Source: Porticoccus sp. (lineage in GTDB: Bacteria; Pseudomonadota; Gammaproteobacteria; Pseudomonadales; CAWVSB01). Taken from it: DNA of 62,122 nucleotides. The position numbers and the translations under genes were made by a program. Under the pieces are notes generated by a model. It saw only the letters and a list, made by a program, of their open reading frames with translations. It was not told the DNA's origin and searched no databases. Position 1 is the first letter of the stretch, and each line of letters opens with the position of its first letter. Location: NCBI GenBank assembly GCA_047628915.1, contig JBLHWB010000001.1, forward strand, positions 1-62,122, in the 5' to 3' direction. This document shows positions 1 to 53,431 of the stretch, in pieces.

Positions 1-1946
1 TTGACGCATTACGTGAATATTGGGGTGCTGGCAAAAATCAAGTAATCGCAGTTGAAGGCGATTTGACCAGTAACAAGCTTGGCGTAAAAGCTGCTTGGGT
101 TAAACAGCACGCCGGCTCTATCGATCACTTTATGCATTTAGCGGCAATTTATGATTTAACGGCAGATGCCGAGTCGCAGCGATTATCGAATGTTGAAGGT
201 ACCAATGAGGCGATTAAGTTATCCAAATCACTTAAGTCTGGTTGTTTTCATCTGGTGAGTTCAATCGCAGCCGCGGGTTTGTATAAAGGTACCTTTACTG
301 AAGATATGTTTGAAGAAGCCACCGATATGGATAATCCATATTTTTGGACCAAACATGAGTCTGAAGGTTTGGTGCGCAAAGAGAAGAAAATGGCCTGGCG
401 CATTTATCGGCCCGGTATGGTGGTAGGCCATTCTGAAACAGGACAAATGGATAAGATAGATGGCCCTTACTATTTCTTTGATTTAATTAATAACGTGAGC
501 AAAGTTATGCCAGAAGGCTTTCCGCTGCTAATGAGTAAAGCCGGTAACTTAAATATCGTGCCAGTAGATTTTGTTGCCGATGCAATAGATCATTTGGTGC
601 ACTTGCCAGATCAAGATCAACAGTGTTTCTTTATTACGGACCCTGATGGGGTGCGCGTTGGTAACTTGATTAAAACATTATTAAAAGTATCTGGCGGTGG
701 AAAGCTTAAAGCCTTAGATGCGCCAATTTTTGACAGCACCACCGAAAAAGCGGGCAAGGCCTTAAGTAAAATTGGCGCGGTTAAGTCACTCAGTAATCGA
801 TTGATTAAGCGGTTGGGCGTGCCGGCAGAGGTGATGGCTTATCTTAATTACCCTACACTTTATGACAATGAACAAACCACGGCTATATTGGCAGAGGCAG
901 GAATTATTTGCCCACCGTTTGAATCTTATGCTGATATTGTGTGGGCTTACTGGAAAGAGTTCATGCACCCTGAAAGTGTGTCAATGCGCGAAGAAATTGA
1001 CGGTATTTTCAATAAAATAGTTGGACGTCCTACCGTTTCTGCGTTGCGACGTGAAGTGAAGGGTAAGGTTGTTGTGGTTACCGGTGCAACCTCCGGTATT
1101 GGTAAAGAGTGTGCCTTGCGTCTTGCGCAAGCTGGAGCCGACGTTGTATTAGTGGCGCGCACCGTTGAGAAGCTTGATGAGACCCTAGCAGAAATTTCTG
1201 AGAGCGGCGGCAAAGCTTTTGCCTATTCATGTGATGTTTCAGATTTAAATGACTGCGATAAGCTAATAAAAAATCTACTGAGTAATCATGGAAAGGTAGA
1301 TATTTTGATTAATAACGCAGGCCGCTCAATTCGTCGTTCAGTACGATACAGTTATGATCGTTTCCATGATTTTGAACGCACCATGCAGCTTAATTATTTT
1401 GGTGCATTGCGTTTAATCACCGGTCTACTTCCCTCAATGGAAGCACAAAAAAGCGGTCATATTATAAATATTTCATCGATTGGAGTGCTAACAAGCCCAC
1501 CGAGGTTTTCCGCTTACGTTGCTTCTAAAGCAGCGCTTGATGCGTTTAGCCAATGTGCGGCACCAGAATATGCAGCGCAAAACATCCATTTCACTACTAT
1601 TTATATGCCGCTAGTACGCACGCCGATGATTGCGCCTACTAGTATGTACAAGGCATTTCCTACGTTATCGCCAGAGCAAGCAAGAGATCTTATTGTTAAG
1701 GCGATTTTAGGCAAGCCCAAGCGTGTTTCTACTGGTTTAGGTATAGCGGGGGCAGTGGCTCAGGCGACCACGCCAGATTTTACCGAGGCAATGTTAGCGC
1801 AGGCCTATAATTTGTTTCCGGATTCTGCAGCGGCGCGTGGTCTAAGTGATGAAGAAGCCGAAGCAGAGAAAGCTAATATACCAACCACTAAACGTCAGAT
1901 CGCTAGAAGGCTGTTTACTAGTGTCATGCGCGGTGGCCATTGGTAA
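1..1946 (+). CDS. Two-domain fatty acyl-CoA/fatty aldehyde reductase-like protein (thioester-reductase type NAD-binding domain fused to a classical SDR); 5' end lies outside the window
   Basis: Frame 3 is open from nt 3 (DALREYWGAGKNQVIAVEGDLTSNKLG...), so the TTG at 63 in the track is internal and the gene starts upstream. The N-terminal part looks like a reductase NAD-binding domain (IDHFMHLAAIYDL, YRPGMVVGH). The C-terminal part is a classical SDR (VVVTGATSGIGKE glycine motif; YVASKAAL = YxxxK). The same two-domain layout occurs in the characterised Marinobacter fatty acyl-CoA/aldehyde reductases. Confidence 0.8.
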   Translation, partial: DALREYWGAGKNQVIAVEGDLTSNKLGVKAAWVKQHAGSIDHFMHLAAIYDLTADAESQRLSNVEGTNEAIKLSKSLKSGCFHLVSSIAAAGLYKGTFTEDMFEEATDMDNPYFWTKHESEGLVRKEKKMAWRIYRPGMVVGHSETGQMDKIDGPYYFFDLINNVSKVMPEGFPLLMSKAGNLNIVPVDFVADAIDHLVHLPDQDQQCFFITDPDGVRVGNLIKTLLKVSGGGKLKALDAPIFDSTTEKAGKALSKIGAVKSLSNRLIKRLGVPAEVMAYLNYPTLYDNEQTTAILAEAGIICPPFESYADIVWAYWKEFMHPESVSMREEIDGIFNKIVGRPTVSALRREVKGKVVVVTGATSGIGKECALRLAQAGADVVLVARTVEKLDETLAEISESGGKAFAYSCDVSDLNDCDKLIKNLLSNHGKVDILINNAGRSIRRSVRYSYDRFHDFERTMQLNYFGALRLITGLLPSMEAQKSGHIINISSIGVLTSPPRFSAYVASKAALDAFSQCAAPEYAAQNIHFTTIYMPLVRTPMIAPTSMYKAFPTLSPEQARDLIVKAILGKPKRVSTGLGIAGAVAQATTPDFTEAMLAQAYNLFPDSAAARGLSDEEAEAEKANIPTTKRQIARRLFTSVMRGGHW

Positions 1947-3258: not shown

Positions 3259-3930
3259 TTAAGCGGTGGGTTCAAATTTGTAGCCAGCGCCATAGACTGA
3301 GTAGATGACATCGTCATCGGGTATTAGTCGCTGTATTTTTTTACGCAATTTCTTGATGTGGCTATCTATTGTCCTATCACTAACCACGCGGTGATCTTGA
3401 TATATTTCATCCATGATTTTATCGCGGGAGAATATATAACCGGGTTTTTCAAACAACATCGTGAAGAGCTCAAATTCGACTGTGGTCAACTTTGTATCTT
3501 CACCGTTGACGGTCACCTTTAATCGATCTTTATCCACTAGGATTCCCTGCATTGATGGCGTAGGCGGCTGAAATCTTCGCAATACTGCTTTTACTCTGGC
3601 GACAACTTCACGTGGGCTATAGGGTTTGCAAATATAATCATCGGCCCCTAATTCTAGTCCTAGCAGGCGATCAATCTCTTCAATTTTTGCGGTTAACATC
3701 ATGATGGGAATAGTTGATGACAGGCGAATTTCTTTACAAATGTCTAAACCATCTTTTCCTGGTAGCATTAAATCTAACAGAATTAATGCAGGCTTATTTT
3801 CTTTTACCCATGCTGCTACTGCTAAGCCGTTGTCAATAATGTGAGAATTAAAACCGGCTGCATGCAGGTAGTCGGCAAGAATTGAGGCAAGTTGTGGTTC
3901 ATCTTCAATAATTAATATTGTTTGGCTCAT
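3259..3930 (-). CDS. OmpR/PhoB-family response regulator (BaeR/CpxR-like)
   Basis: Receiver domain (ILIIEDEP..., phospho-acceptor context LLDLMLPGKDG) plus a winged-helix output (LTTVEFELFTMLFEKPGYIFSRDKIMDEIY). Confidence 0.9.
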   Translation of the reverse strand: MSQTILIIEDEPQLASILADYLHAAGFNSHIIDNGLAVAAWVKENKPALILLDLMLPGKDGLDICKEIRLSSTIPIMMLTAKIEEIDRLLGLELGADDYICKPYSPREVVARVKAVLRRFQPPTPSMQGILVDKDRLKVTVNGEDTKLTTVEFELFTMLFEKPGYIFSRDKIMDEIYQDHRVVSDRTIDSHIKKLRKKIQRLIPDDDVIYSVYGAGYKFEPTA

Positions 3931-15160: not shown

Positions 15161-15952
15161 TTACTTGCCAGTAAAGTTTGGTTTACGTTTTTCTAAAAAT
15201 GCTGCGATACCTTCTTTACCGTCGGTAGTCGCGGCCATCGTCGCAATGCCATTTGTTTCTAGTTGCAGCTGAGTTTCGTAGCCATTTTGAAAACTGCTCA
15301 TTAATAGATTTTTCACTTGTCCATAAGCAGTGCTTGGCCCTTTAGCTAACTGCGTAGCAAGCTCGTTTGCTCGCATCATAACATCTGCAGGTGGAACAAC
15401 TTCACTGACTAAGCCCCAGTCCAAGGCCTCGGCCGCACTGAGTACGCGGTTAGTGATCATCAGCTCCATGGCTTTTCGCATGCCCACTAATCTCGGCAGT
15501 ACATAGGTGCTTGATCCGTCTGGTGACAAGCCTGCCCCAGTGTAAGCTAAGGTATATTTGGCAGTATCAGCACTGATCGCAAAGTCCCCAGCGATGGCAA
15601 GGCTAAAGCCCGCGCCAGCAGCGGTGCCATTAATCGCGGTAATCACTGGTTTATTCATGCGGGCAAAATTGGATGTAGCGCTATGCAGTGCCGAGGTGAT
15701 CGTTCTTAGGCCGTCGGCAATTTTGTCGCCATAGGCCGCAAAGCTTGCTAAGTCGCCACCAGCCGAAAACATTTTTCCATTGCCAGTGATAATGACAGCA
15801 CGAATTGAATCGTCACTATAAATTTTGATGGAAGCATCATTGAGCTCTTCTGCCAAAGGGATATTAATACTGTTGGCTGCGTTAGGACGATTTAGAGTGA
15901 TTGTGGCGACGGCGTTATTGACTTCGTATTGAATGTTTTTGTAATCAGACAT
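15161..15952 (-). CDS. Enoyl-CoA hydratase/isomerase (crotonase) family protein
   Basis: 263 aa. Crotonase motifs: ATITLNRPNAANS, FSAGGDL, PVITAINGTAAGAGFSLAIAGD. Confidence 0.85.
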   Translation of the reverse strand: MSDYKNIQYEVNNAVATITLNRPNAANSINIPLAEELNDASIKIYSDDSIRAVIITGNGKMFSAGGDLASFAAYGDKIADGLRTITSALHSATSNFARMNKPVITAINGTAAGAGFSLAIAGDFAISADTAKYTLAYTGAGLSPDGSSTYVLPRLVGMRKAMELMITNRVLSAAEALDWGLVSEVVPPADVMMRANELATQLAKGPSTAYGQVKNLLMSSFQNGYETQLQLETNGIATMAATTDGKEGIAAFLEKRKPNFTGK

Positions 15953-41152: not shown

Positions 41153-41500
41153 CTAATTAAATATTGCTTGGTATTGATCGGCTTTAAAGCCAACAAATAC
41201 AGAATCGTCTATGGTTAGCACCGGACGTTTGACTAAAGTTGGGTTGGCCAACAATAAATCCAATGCGGTTGTCTCGTTCAAACCTTCTTTTTGAGTATCA
41301 CTTAGCTGTTTCCAAGTGGTGGAGCGTTTATTAACCACTACATCAACCCCTGCCACATCTAACCAACGTTTAACTTCAGCCTTGTCTACACCGTCTTCAC
41401 GTACGTCTACGAAAGTATAATCGCTGCCATTAGCGTCTAGCCATTTACGTGCTTTCTTTACCGTGTCGCAGTTTTTAATACCGTATACCGTTGCGGGCAT
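41153..41500 (-). CDS. ArsC-family reductase-like protein (YffB type)
   Basis: 115 aa with N-terminal YGIKNCDTVKKARKWL, typical of the ArsC/Spx/YffB fold. Confidence 0.8.
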   Translation of the reverse strand: MPATVYGIKNCDTVKKARKWLDANGSDYTFVDVREDGVDKAEVKRWLDVAGVDVVVNKRSTTWKQLSDTQKEGLNETTALDLLLANPTLVKRPVLTIDDSVFVGFKADQYQAIFN

Positions 41501-41734
41501 GGAATTGTCCTGTATTAGTGTTTTAATTGCCCAGTTCTAAGGCTGCGTAGCATACCATTGGAAGCGTATTTGGTTAAGCAATAGCGGCAATAGTTACAGC
41601 GTATCGATAAGGTGGTCTGAGCGGCTAAATCTCTTGTGATTTAAACTGTGTGCTATACGGTAGAGTTACATTCCCGTTTTGTCATTTATCTATCCGCCTG
41701 ATAGCTGGCCGAGCGCCAAATATCAGGCAGCTTA

Positions 41735-42385
41735 ATGACAAACCTTCGCTACAACTTCCAAACCATTGAGTTTGGCAAGATAGATATCCATCTTTGTACC
41801 TTGCGTGACAATCAAGAATTCGACGATCCTGAAGGTGTTGCTGAAAAACTGGGCATATCATCGGCGTCTTGGCCAATATTTGGCATTATTTGGCCATCAG
41901 CTCTAGTGCTTGCTCATCATCTTTGTGATTACGACACTGGTACTAAACGAATTTTAGAAATGGGCTGCGGTATGGCGTTAAGTAGCTTGCTGCTAAATAA
42001 ACGACATGCCGACATTACTGCTACTGACTATCATCCCGAGGTAGGCAGGTTTTTAATAAGAAATACTTTGTTGAACGAAGATCAACCTATTAACTATAAA
42101 CAAGCCGACTGGGGCGATAGCGATGATGAACTAGGCTTGTTTGACTTAATAATCGGTAGCGATTTGTTATATGAAGAAGAGCATATTGAATTACTAGCTA
42201 ACTTTATAGAGCGTCATTCAAAGCCAATTTGTGAAGTAATTTTGGTTGACCCAGGGCGGGGCAGAAAAAACAAGTTAACGGCTAAAATGCTAGAGTTTGG
42301 TTTTAGTTCGAGCCATTCAAAGCCTGCGCATACCGATTATTTAGAGAAAGATTTTAAAGGGCATATTTTGACGTTTGCACGATAG
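41735..42385 (+). CDS. Class I SAM-dependent methyltransferase (protein-lysine MTase family 16-like)
   Basis: Motif I ILEMGCGMALSSL, a post-I acidic residue (ITATDY), and LIIGSDLLYEEEH, typical of the METTL21/FAM86-like family. Confidence 0.65.
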   Translation: MTNLRYNFQTIEFGKIDIHLCTLRDNQEFDDPEGVAEKLGISSASWPIFGIIWPSALVLAHHLCDYDTGTKRILEMGCGMALSSLLLNKRHADITATDYHPEVGRFLIRNTLLNEDQPINYKQADWGDSDDELGLFDLIIGSDLLYEEEHIELLANFIERHSKPICEVILVDPGRGRKNKLTAKMLEFGFSSSHSKPAHTDYLEKDFKGHILTFAR

Positions 42386-42445
42386 TTTTGATTCCTTGAC
42401 CGGTGGTCATTAGTACATAATTTAATTATTTATATTGGATTTAGT

Positions 42446-42697
42446 CAGGTTTCGCCTGGTGGCGAGTTACTTTTCAATACTCGCTACGCTCGCCCTGCGG
42501 GTCGCCCATTCGGGCGCTCAACGCACTTCGTGCTTTTGTGATGGGCAAAGAAAATGTAACCAAAAGAAAGCCACCCAAATTCGTCGCCCTTCGGGAAACC
42601 TGAGTTTTAACCCACATAACGGACGCTCGGTAACTCGCCTGCGGCTCAAACATCCCTCACTTTACTCCGTTATCTGGATTAAAACTCAGGCGACTTC
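42446..42697 (+). repeat. Structured intergenic repeat, copy A (MITE/REP-like, two hairpin modules, carries a 58-nt GC-rich insertion)
   Basis: Matches the reverse complement of 43417-43608 block by block (GGTTTCGCCTGGTGGCGAGTTACTTTTC; GAAAATGTAACCAAAAGAAAGC; GCCCTTCGGGAAACCTGAG; AACTCGCCTGCGGCTCAAACA; ACTCAGGCGACTTC). The 42476-42533 block is extra relative to copy B. Weaker similarity continues to about 42730. Confidence 0.85.
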
Positions 42698-42800
42698 AGA
42701 TTGGGGAGAGGTAGATCGAAACCAATTGAGGATTCTCTCTGTTATTATTATAGTGGATCAATGAGTCTTGCTTAAAAGCTATTAAAAAGGATATGAAATA

Positions 42801-43358
42801 GTGAATTACAATAACTATGTAAAGGATATTAGCTTCGATGAAAATGGTTTTAGTTCAAGCCCTTCATTAAGTAGCAGGTCAGGCTGGCTTATTTTCGCTG
42901 TATTCTTTTTTCTCGCAGCGGTTAAATTTACTTTCGTTGCTTTTTCGGGCAATGAATCAGTTATGGCAAGTATTGTAGTTATTGCTAGTCTATTGGGTAT
43001 TTGTTGTCTTTGGTTACAAACAAAAGAGGTACAAATTAACTCAATAAATTTTTCTAGACATAATTATGTAGGTTTTTCTAACTATCATATCTTTTCAAGA
43101 CATACTTCGATTCCAATTAAAAATTATGAATATATAGATCTTGTTGTAGACGAGGTTTTTAGAACGCCGAAAACCCACAAGCATAGTAATGTCACATTTT
43201 ATATTGAGTCTTCAGGTTTGTCTGAGGCTATTGGTGTGAAAATGGACTTGGTGGATAGGAGCGCAAAGAGTGCAGTGTTAGCTTTGGCTAAAGATTTATC
43301 CGTATTAACAGGCTTGCCTGTAAAATCAGAGTCTCATCTTTTAGAAGAGCATTTATAA
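42801..43358 (+). CDS. Orphan hypothetical membrane protein (two TM helices plus a soluble C-terminal domain)
   Basis: 185-aa ORF with a GTG start 9 nt after AAGGA. Hydrophobic helices are WLIFAVFFFLAAVKFTFVAF and ASIVVIASLLGICCLWL. AT-rich, N/S/K/I-rich composition unlike its neighbours. No motif recognised. Confidence 0.55.
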   Translation: MNYNNYVKDISFDENGFSSSPSLSSRSGWLIFAVFFFLAAVKFTFVAFSGNESVMASIVVIASLLGICCLWLQTKEVQINSINFSRHNYVGFSNYHIFSRHTSIPIKNYEYIDLVVDEVFRTPKTHKHSNVTFYIESSGLSEAIGVKMDLVDRSAKSAVLALAKDLSVLTGLPVKSESHLLEEHL

Positions 43359-43416
43359 ATATCTCAATTATCTTATATTTAAACCATTTGATTTCGATTT
43401 CTAAATTCCCATTGAA

Positions 43417-43608
43417 GAAGTCGCCTGAGTATTGTCAAAAATCACGACGTAAAGCGAAGGGTGTTTGAGCCAAAGGCGAGTTCCTGAGCGGTCGTTATTT
43501 TTGGCAATGCTCAGGTTTCCCGAAGGGCGGCTTATGTGGGTGTGCTTTCTTTTGGTTACATTTTCTTTTCACACAAAAGAAAAGTAACTCGCCATCAGGC
43601 GAAACCAG
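43417..43608 (-). repeat. Structured intergenic repeat, copy B (inverted relative to copy A)
   Basis: Its reverse complement aligns with 42446-42697 apart from the 58-nt insertion. Contains a 14-bp outer hairpin (43555-43588, loop CACAC) and a 25-bp inner hairpin (43424-43448 with 43491-43515). Confidence 0.85.
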
Positions 43609-43644
43609 ATAAAATTAATCTACTCAATAATGAGCAAAGCTAGA

Positions 43645-44229
43645 TTAAAGTAATGCTCCAATCCTCTCCTGCATCAGCGGCACAAACTCTCTCTCAAACC
43701 ATTCATTCTTCTTCAACCAAATATTATTCCTCGGGCTAGGGTGGGGCAGTGGTAATAGCGTTGGCCAATACATCTCCCATTGCCTAACAGTCTCGGTTAA
43801 ATTTTTCTGCAAACGATCTTTCATATGCCATTGCTGCGCATAGCTTCCTATAACTAAAGTGAGCTGAATATTAGGCATATGATCCAAAAACTGCTGTCGC
43901 CATTGGGGAGCACATTCTATCCGAGGCGGTAAGTCGCCCGATTTACCTTTGCCGGGATAACAAAAGCCCATAGGTAAAATAGCTATTTTATCTGAATTGT
44001 AAAAAGTGCCTTTATCTATACCCATCCATTGGCGCAAGCGTTCTCCGCTTTTGTCGTCAAAGGGGATGCCTGACAGATGAACTTTGCTGCCCGGCGCTTG
44101 CCCTGCGATTAAAATTTTTGCGGTATGACTAACTTGAAATACAGGGCGGATACCATCTATTAAATGGTCTTTGCATAGTGTGCATTGCGTGGCGTTTGAG
44201 GCGATGACATCGAGTGCTGACTTAGTCAT
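43645..44229 (-). CDS. Uracil-DNA glycosylase superfamily protein (family 4/5-like)
   Basis: Motif A as IAGQAPGSKVH and motif B as HPSPRN. Confidence 0.75.
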   Translation of the reverse strand: MTKSALDVIASNATQCTLCKDHLIDGIRPVFQVSHTAKILIAGQAPGSKVHLSGIPFDDKSGERLRQWMGIDKGTFYNSDKIAILPMGFCYPGKGKSGDLPPRIECAPQWRQQFLDHMPNIQLTLVIGSYAQQWHMKDRLQKNLTETVRQWEMYWPTLLPLPHPSPRNNIWLKKNEWFEREFVPLMQERIGALL

Positions 44230-53276: not shown

Positions 53277-53431
53277 GCGCGCCGCTGTCTGCATTAGGTA
53301 GGCAGTGATTAAAATTCGAACACTTATCGACACATGTTTCGGGGTGCTTGGCCTTATCTATAATAACTAGGGCTAGGTTGAAATATGGGATAGGTGGGAG
53401 AGATAACCCATTACAAAATATAGGCAATATT

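Follow-up and report, generated by a model that had tools for sequence, protein, structure and literature searches.

We analysed a 62,122-nt stretch of Porticoccus sp. DNA (contig JBLHWB010000001.1, positions 1 to 62,122; hereafter, the window), in which a 1.16-kb unit at 42446-43608 holds one AT-rich, foreign-looking orphan gene (the cargo) between two inverted copies of a long structured repeat (arms A and B). It probably represents a rare type of portable gene cassette that has not been described before. The reading that we favour, with a probability of about 0.5, is that of a rare, uncatalogued, low-copy, non-autonomous and self-insulated gene cassette with long structured inverted arms, which is passed on horizontally and disappears through deletions between the palindromic hairpins that it carries. 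The unit recurs whole at unrelated chromosomal sites in two species, with its outer ends outward and between convergent genes. Comparison of the available copies further indicates that the fold of the arms is maintained by compensatory substitutions, that the arms are mosaic between genomes and that the unit has been lost by internal deletion leaving the outer hairpins only. Its mobility we infer only from this distribution.

The two arms are homologous inverted copies with approximately 78% identity around one open reading frame (ORF), as the first-pass annotation of the window had claimed from the sequence letters. An inverted-repeat search resolved three collinear inverted segments, which pair 42572-42697 with 43417-43542 (126 nt, 76%), 42439-42475 with 43579-43615 (37 nt, 89%) and 42542-42571 with 43544-43573 (30 nt, 93%). 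When arm A was compared with the whole window using BLASTN, arm B was the sole match (78% over 166 nt, E = 1.6e-33), the rest being the internal hairpin of arm A itself and noise. Consistently, a covariance model (CM) of the arm core found two sites only in the window (163 and 162 bits). Every shared block that had been annotated was present in the pairwise alignment, with the GGTTTCGCC ends outward and the CTCAGGCGACTTC ends inward, and the complementary termini (TCGCCTG(A/G) and TCAGGCGA) were found in the arms. The copies had been located correctly, and only their limits had to be moved slightly outward (Table 1). The weaker similarity reported to continue for about 35 nt further inward is genuine and is kept in all seven arms studied here as A(T/A)TGGGG. 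The single sizeable ORF between the arms had no Pfam match, and it is the only gene there, as annotated.

The recurrence of the unit was established by scanning 596 Gb of species-representative genomes for an exact 21-mer of the arm (AAAATGTAACCAAAAGAAAGC). Three exact matches were obtained, all of them in one uncultured Cellvibrionales metagenome-assembled genome and distributed over two contigs (L015 and L016). Both contigs carry an inverted arm pair with the outer ends outward, at 388-588 (+) and ~1351-1553 (-) in L015 and at 652-872 (+) and 1673-1900 (-) in L016. These loci resemble the window in the arms only, and their flanks are unrelated. The window unit lies between a class I methyltransferase gene (MT, 41735-42385, +) and a UDG-family gene (43645-44229, -), the L015 unit between TatD and a glutaredoxin-like gene, and the L016 unit between amidohydrolase and MatE genes. 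At all three loci the host genes on either side are core genes in convergent orientation, and the units occupy nearly the whole convergent spacer, leaving 10-60 nt per side. The cargo differs at each locus: a 185-aa ORF in the window, a 147-aa ORF in L016 and a frame of roughly 165 codons in L015, which holds three in-frame stops and is read as a pseudogene. The inverted pairs around other cargo genes that the annotation had envisaged are thus found in another species. All cargoes are AT-rich, with 31-35% GC versus 43-48% in the flanks of the window unit and 32-37% versus 43-44% over the whole L015 and L016 loci. No mobility gene was identified among the genes flanking the L015 and L016 units, beyond which lie an AmtB-like gene (judged by sequence, not by Pfam) and cytochrome oxidase genes. 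L017 represents a fourth unit, namely a divergent allele from the locus of the window unit itself.

The 142-position core model of the arm was subsequently searched against 260 kb of sequence (the window and 23 loci). Seven full-length arms scored 132-163 bits and contig-truncated fragments of arm A (L040, L017) scored 51-80 bits, while the only other matches at E ≤ 0.01 were weak reverse-strand ones to the same hairpins. No solo arm was present in this search space; every full or near-full copy was part of an inverted-pair unit, and partner arms lay ~0.7-0.9 kb apart with constant polarity at three independent loci. The annotated composite cargo element is upheld insofar as the stretch behaves as one arm-cargo-inverted-arm unit, and its description as two independent elements is not, since no arm was found alone. 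Likewise, in the sequences searched the repeat is not the abundant solo intergenic element that the annotation had named as the finding most damaging to its own proposal.

The same data bear on the explanation that the arms are dispersed repeats resembling miniature inverted-repeat transposable elements (MITEs), which inserted independently and are paired by coincidence or through a shared target preference, e.g., for terminators between convergent genes. Each arm has short terminal complementarity (TCGCCTGA/TCAGGCGA) and a long hairpin, as do many MITEs, and the arms sit at terminator positions, one of those in L016 directly behind a terminator-like hairpin of the host. However, a MITE or REP family would be expected in many, mostly solo copies, whereas the 260-kb search found no solo arm and the 21-mer occurred only three times in 596 Gb. 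Moreover, every full-length arm is one half of a same-polarity inverted pair at three independent loci, the units with clear marks combine one arm of each of the two types described below, and orthologous loci lack arms and cargo together. We consider independent insertion to be quite improbable. The hairpin in L016 (620-645, GCTCATTAAGTTGAGC followed by a T-tract) overlaps the amidohydrolase stop codon and abuts the outer end of arm a, and its placement hints that units may land right after terminators. The solo P1-P2 palindrome of the arm (see below) was also considered as a dispersed target and rejected, as it was found nowhere else in the window except for a 3-mismatch match at 15748 inside a long ORF (15161-15952).

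Other collections yielded no further copies. A BLAST search of plasmid and phage collections returned nothing relevant, scans of viral contigs with an exact 17-mer and a gapped two-block pattern gave chance matches or nothing, and a metagenome collection, which excludes the source contigs, gave four chance matches to CGCCCTTCGGGAAACCTGAG. A chimeric six-frame query of the arms, designed to catch copies through spurious ORF calls, had no match among 5.8e9 proteins.

Seven arms (winA and winB of the window, L015a, L015b, L016a, L016b and L017b) were aligned, and a consensus structure of 44 pairs was obtained, with 93.7% of the cells in these positions paired. It consists of P1 (TCGCC/GGCGA), the AU-rich hairpin P2, a closing stem (GUCG/CGAC), P3 (CCC-UUC-GGG), a 21-pair P4 and a 4-pair apical helix. 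Changes on both sides were observed for 14 pairs, in comparison to 6.9±1.7 in column shuffles (0/500 reached 14) and no more than three in slid controls. P1 shows covariation, with CGCC/GGCG replaced by CGCT/AGCG in L016b; three arms have G-C and three have U-A as the inner pair of P2; and compensatory changes are also found in the apical helix, which is non-palindromic and has a conserved internal mismatch. The helix tips vary in length, with a 58-nt insert in the P2 loop of window arm A and an extra 23-nt hairpin at the P4 tip of L015b, L016a and L016b, and the unpaired blocks are nearly invariant (CCAAAAGAAAGC-CACCCA, AACTCGCC and CTCAAACA). Pairing of CCCA(A/U) with (U/A)UGGG was predicted by RNAduplex in every arm, with one swap of A-U to U-A between winA and L015a. 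The inner extension could conceivably pair with the junction in this manner and close the core domain as a further helix, P5, which would explain why the similarity runs past the hairpin. The strand leading outward from the cargo folds 5-20 kcal/mol better than its complement in all seven arms (z-scores relative to shuffles of −5.6 versus −2.8 for arm B and −3.3 versus −1.9 for L015a). Since conserved intramolecular folding would be unexpected for plain duplex ends bound by a transposase, it is more likely that the arms are read in the form of folded single strands, either RNA or DNA.

Genes for small proteins were considered as the reason for arm conservation and rejected. The reverse-strand ORF RFPEGRRIWVAFFWLHFLC is frame-shifted between arms A and B over 25 identical nucleotides, which places the conservation at the non-coding, nucleic-acid level, and no arm frame had a protein match among 5.8e9 proteins. 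No Rfam family matched the unit at gathering level (permissive matches reached 19-22 bits versus thresholds of 50-94), and no tRNA or tmRNA was found in it.

The outer hairpin P1 and its TTACTTTTC tail were called terminator-like in six of the seven arms by a consensus scan, always in the direction of the incoming host transcript. The exception was L015b, the most degenerate arm, which belongs to the pseudogene unit. P1 would be placed so as to end both converging host mRNAs and to shield the cargo from read-in. The covarying multi-helix fold, the terminator-like nature of the outer hairpin and the constant placement between convergent genes had all gone unremarked in the annotation.

These features also form the basis of the main rival to the cassette reading, with which it is not fully exclusive. 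It holds that the arms are primarily functional RNA modules (a 3' untranslated region (UTR), terminator or insulator) rather than transposon ends, and that ordinary horizontal transfer and homologous recombination are the only means by which the package spreads. In the outside-in direction, each arm would terminate the adjacent host mRNA at P1; in the inside-out direction, one of them would form the structured 3' UTR of the cargo mRNA. The need for two inverted copies would follow simply from the position of the unit between convergent genes. The complex non-palindromic fold, with long-range closing helices, optional tip hairpins and invariant unpaired blocks, is what structured RNAs typically show. 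All seven arms agree in having one strand that folds better, and in the downstream arm of the window, L016 and L015 this strand is the cargo sense strand. P1 is terminator-like toward both neighbours, and it is P1 that is kept in the remnants described below. On the other hand, consensus scans detected no sigma-70-like promoter inside the arms (window, L015 and L016), the upstream arm precedes the cargo promoter, so that its well-folding strand has no obvious transcript, and there is no Rfam family match. Approximately 200 nt of conserved structure far exceeds what termination needs, and homologous recombination alone cannot put the package at new loci with unrelated flanks. We regard the RNA-module explanation as a genuine possibility, although well short of a likely one.

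According to the cassette reading, each cassette would consist of one AT-rich orphan gene with its own promoter between two inverted modules of ~200-225 nt, each folding as P1, P2, junction, P3, long P4 and the closing P5. The unit would move, or be exchanged horizontally, through factors supplied in trans, and its arms would be recognised in folded, single-stranded form and not as simple duplex sites for binding, with the inside-to-outside strand being favoured because it folds better in every arm. Once arms are present in a genome, the cargo could be swapped by homologous recombination within them. P1 and its T-rich tail would terminate the two converging host transcripts, insulating the cargo and replacing the terminator displaced by the insertion; such a replacement role would explain why P1 survives in relatives that have lost the rest.

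The relationships among the arms are in line with descent combined with exchange. Pairwise identities are star-like (about 72-83%; 79% for winA and winB), apart from two pairs at 88%, namely the orthologous arms winB and L017b, and L017b and L015a, which come from different species. Two small characters, namely a 1-nt indel after GAAAGC and the inner P2 pair, separate winA, L015a and L016a (A-type) from winB, L017b and L016b (B-type), and each well-preserved unit has one arm of either type. The hairpin at the P4 tip is common to both L016 arms, cutting across this division. The picture, drawn from a small sample, is that of whole units related by descent, with apparent later exchange between arms and genomes.

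In the window and L016, the ORF is directed away from the A-type arm and towards the B-type one; in L015, its direction relative to the A-type arm is the opposite. Such a reversal, together with inverted repeats placed around a segment composed of a promoter and a gene, is what an invertible (phase-variable) segment would show, in which recombination between the arms flips the cargo and its promoter; the annotation had also proposed an invertible cassette. However, five junction-spanning assemblies at the window locus (the window, L003, L004, L008 and L017) all have the same orientation. With just 78% identity and exact matches of at most 25-28 nt, the arms are poorly suited to recombination; they are also roughly ten times longer than known inverton repeats, and no invertase gene lies nearby. 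Phase variation therefore appears scarcely credible.

The orthologous locus of relatives, fetched through MT orthologues, was informative about the loss of the unit. In L018-20, L021 and L025-27 (MT identity of 95%, 93% and 85%, respectively), MT and UDG are separated by only 63-90 nt, and unit and gene are absent together; no orthologous locus had the gene but not the arms, a combination that would have spoken against the annotated unit. These spacers are not clean, and hold three different remnants made up of outer arm ends only. In L018, the outer 28 nt of arm A are joined to the last 13 nt of arm B, the arm-B-side part matching the right end of L017 at 29/30 positions. The L021 spacer reads GGCGA, the P2 hairpin and TCGCC-ATCA-GGCGAAACC, exactly as expected if the interval between the direct repeats GTTAC(A)TTTTC of the two P2 hairpins had been deleted; these repeats exist because P2 is a palindrome present in both arms. 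In L025, about 47 nt of the outer part of arm B are kept. P1 is retained in these remnants. The three different breakpoints point to independent illegitimate deletions of an ancestral unit and not to a single site-specific product, so the clean excision suggested by the annotation finds no support. The remnants argue for a unit that was already present in the common ancestor and whose interior was deleted several times independently. An MT orthologue at 78% identity (L035-39) was set aside as uninformative on the ancestral state, having other synteny and no trace of an arm.

The 58-nt block in arm A, suggested by the annotation to be a nested insertion, is indeed one. The same arm in L022-24 (Logan) and L040 (Tara), whose MT identities are 91% and 89%, reads CTTTTCTTTGGTGGCAAAGAAAATG without the block, and its absence from these unit-bearing lineages marks it as a later insertion. 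The block is polymorphic: the window and L003-L010 have it, L022-24 and L040 do not, and several Logan contigs break inside or beside it. No second copy was found in any of the sequences examined. A likeness of the block to an attC central hairpin (13-nt match, E = 0.27) was treated as chance.

The 185-aa cargo protein had no Pfam, no PHROG and no convincing PADLOC match, and its relatives numbered three among 5.8e9 proteins and four among 1.84e9 cluster representatives. Its AlphaFold model (pLDDT 50) was too poor for a fold search. The window gene (42801-43358) and its L017 allele (167-724) have ~100% nucleotide identity through the inner part of arm A, the promoter-like site and the first ~50 codons, followed by ~55% in the remainder. 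The synonymous divergence (dS) is 0.03 before codon ~50 and 1.47 over codons 50-185, where the ratio of non-synonymous to synonymous divergence (dN/dS) of 0.26 indicates a real gene under purifying selection. On this alignment, a sharp recombination breakpoint lies inside the cargo near codon 50, and the C-terminal domain is represented by deeply diverged alleles in co-occurring strains.

P0125, which is 31% identical to the cargo protein over the full length (E = 8e-20) and is its sole distant homologue, is encoded in L033/L034, from the same metagenome series as the window. These contigs contain direct repeats of ~65 nt, starting ...TAACAA and ending ...GCGGCGTTA(R), between single small ORFs without Pfam matches. 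They look like an attC-type integron cassette array, although no integrase is present on the 3.8-kb array contig, and the position of P0125 suggests that the cargo family travels as a cassette elsewhere. This finding raises the possibility that the arms themselves are divergent integron attC or Xer (dif-like) boundaries and that the unit is a cassette of such a known system. A single small orphan ORF is of cassette size, and folded sites whose structure is kept by covariation are reminiscent of attC. Nevertheless, a regular-expression scan of 42301-43750 detected no attC core pair (R'' RYYYAAC, R' GTTRRRY) on either strand, and no dif or pdif half-site occurred in the arms within two mismatches, although the latter test is weak. 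The gene is accompanied by two sites in inverted orientation, where an integron cassette would have a single direct one; the arms have a conserved sequence in addition to their conserved structure; the cargo has its own promoter-like site; and no integrase lies nearby. We judge this origin to be very improbable.

A bolder form of the cassette reading would view the arms as a new gene-cassette system paralleling integrons. Modules of ~225 nt would fold as single-stranded DNA or RNA on the inside-to-outside strand and signal to an enzyme acting on them the capture, exchange and insertion of single orphan genes between convergent chromosomal genes, each cassette bringing its bidirectional transcriptional insulation. 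We put this forward tentatively and think it rather unlikely.

Comparison with described elements did not place the unit in any of them. Integron cassettes likewise carry a single small orphan ORF and rely on a folded single-strand site kept by structure, but they have one direct attC with R''/R' cores, a promoterless ORF and an adjacent platform of integrase and attI, none of which is found at the unit. The pdif (Xer) modules of Acinetobacter plasmids are small gene modules with inverted 28-bp XerC/XerD recombination sites. The unit is also a small gene module bounded by inverted sites; however, it is chromosomal and, by the weak test above, lacks the half-sites of these plasmid modules. The REPIN/RAYT, REP, ERIC, Correia and RUP repeats resemble the arms, which are short, non-coding and hairpin-forming with complementary termini, in being non-coding, hairpin-forming and intergenic, frequently at 3' ends, and inverted REP-type repeats lie on both sides of RAYT genes. 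These families are nevertheless abundant and mostly solo, and the RAYT-flanked gene is the transposase itself, whereas the arms are of very low copy number and the cargo is an unrelated membrane protein without an HUH motif. Mobile insertion cassettes (MICs), such as MIC231 from the Bacillus cereus group, consist of one or a few passenger genes enclosed by terminal inverted repeats; no transposase is encoded internally and mobility is presumed to be provided in trans. The unit shares this arrangement, as its ORF lacked any transposase match in Pfam, PHROG or PADLOC. The ends of MICs are, however, short insertion sequence (IS) ends that match known autonomous IS and are accompanied by target duplications, while the arms of the unit are 200-225 nt long, have a covarying multi-helix fold and no known partner IS, and no target-site duplication was seen at the window, L015 or L016. 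Pairs of TIMEs (miniature elements with inverted repeats, derived from Tn3) are non-autonomous repeats of ~260 bp that flank arbitrary cargo and mobilise it as a composite (PMC4133298). TIMEs also exist as solo elements and have 38-bp Tn3-type inverted repeats and 5-6-bp duplications (PMC4133298); the unit has no solo arm, no Tn3-type inverted repeat and no duplication. Because defining features of MICs and TIMEs such as target duplication are lacking, the unit was filed outside any named family, as a variant of non-autonomous inverted-repeat cassette, with MICs and TIME pairs being the closest described elements.

Several observations weigh against the favoured reading. No transposase, integrase or recombinase was found in or near any unit (window, L015 and L016), and none of the three loci shows a target-site duplication, the flanks being free of direct repeats at the unit boundaries; the annotation had reported both absences for the window unit. 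No autonomous element with these arms was found in the 260-kb CM search. Only three independent loci are available, and the statistics are thin. There is no clean empty site for L015 or L016. At the window locus, the unit predates lineages that differ by 15% in the MT protein, which implies infrequent movement there. The terminator role of P1 is a pattern match only. Compensatory changes in palindromes can stem from template-directed repair instead of selection, though this would not explain the non-palindromic apical helix. Finally, the wobble count on the outside-in strand (6 G-U versus 10 C-A) points in the same direction as the folding energies but is too small to fix the functional strand.

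Orphan genes are numerous in marine bacteria, and to our knowledge integrons are almost the sole well-understood route for packaging and moving single genes. If the arms are recombination or mobilisation signals, a cassette system of a new class would be at hand, and with it a new structured motif of nucleic acids; if they act as RNA insulators, they would show how foreign genes nest between host genes without transcriptional damage. With either reading, the arm family provides a defined, searchable consensus and structure model for genomes and metatranscriptomes. The package is structurally distinct from integrons, and its cargo family is common to integron cassettes. The features of the window unit and of the attC-type array are listed in Table 1.

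Table 1. Features of the cassette-like unit (window coordinates) and of the attC-type array that encodes the distant cargo homologue (contig coordinates).
Feature	Position	Strand	Basis
Arm A (A-type), full structured repeat with outer inverted-repeat extension (from ATTTAG) and ~35-nt inner extension	42439..42730	+	Inverted repeats; alignment with arm B and five other-locus arms; CM 42557-42698, 163.4 bits
P1 hairpin (TCGCC-TGGT-GGCGA) and TTACTTTTC tail, terminator-like, facing incoming MT transcript	42451..42475	+	Terminator scan; covariation; kept in relatives' remnants
P2 AU-rich hairpin (GTTACTTTTC ... GAAAATGTAAC), variable loop	42466..42560	+	Consensus fold of arm alignment, helix 2
GC-rich 58-nt insertion with three hairpins in P2 loop; window-lineage specific	42476..42533	+	Absent from otherwise identical arm A in L040, L022-24
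Junction block J (CAAAAGAAAGCCACCCA), nearly invariant, unpaired; CCCAA (42574-42578), proposed P5 5' strand	42561..42577	+	Invariant columns; predicted duplex in all arms
Core domain: closing stem GTCG/CGAC, P3 (CCC-TTC-GGG), long P4 (CCTGAG...CTCAGG) with apical helix and variable tip	42583..42694	+	21+4 pairs, 12 with compensatory double changes
Inner extension (AGATTGGGGAGAGG...TCGAAACCAATTGA); TTGGG (42701-42705), proposed P5 3' strand	42698..42730	+	Conserved A(T/A)TGGGG; RNAduplex pairing with J
Promoter-like site TTGAGG-17-TATAGT for cargo gene, just inside arm A	42726..42754	+	Consensus scan, pattern match only; identical site in L017 allele
Cargo, 185-aa orphan protein (GTG start, two predicted transmembrane helices and beta-rich C-domain), 31-35% GC	42801..43358	+	ORF list; dN/dS; GC profile
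Arm B (B-type), full structured repeat; P1 at 43603-43588 facing UDG transcript	43383..43615	-	Inverted repeats; alignment; CM 43416-43558, 162.2 bits
attC-type repeats (...TAACAAGGCAAACC...GTTTGCGGCGTTARR)	L033 965-1041, 1352-1416, 1714-1776, ~2510-2570, 3270-3334, 3731-3795; L034 42-110		

The surroundings of the unit in the window comprise MT, UDG, nth, dapC and dapD, and the MT gene was also found on JGI metagenome contigs, including one with an identical gene order. The 3' end of UDG and the spacer beside arm B (43616-43660) vary in length and sequence across the window, L017, L018, L021 and L025, and records exist for the proteins of its neighbours but not for exactly the UDG protein of the window. 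The C-terminus of UDG may have been reshaped by rearrangements at the edge of the unit. On the other side of the unit, L022, L023 and L027, at 85-91% MT identity, have a block of three additional genes (DUF2860, zinc alcohol dehydrogenase and a LysR regulator) situated between an ArsC-family gene and MT. This block is absent from the window (41500-41735), L018 and L021, and constitutes a second indel polymorphism adjoining the unit. The sole Rfam match of the window at gathering level was t44 RNA (RF00127, 53.3 bits) at 53299-53407 (+), upstream of an ORF starting at 53348. The gene at the equivalent position in orthologous loci, after a catalase-peroxidase gene, matches Pfam Ribosomal_S2, and the t44 match is probably the usual, ordinary rpsB leader.

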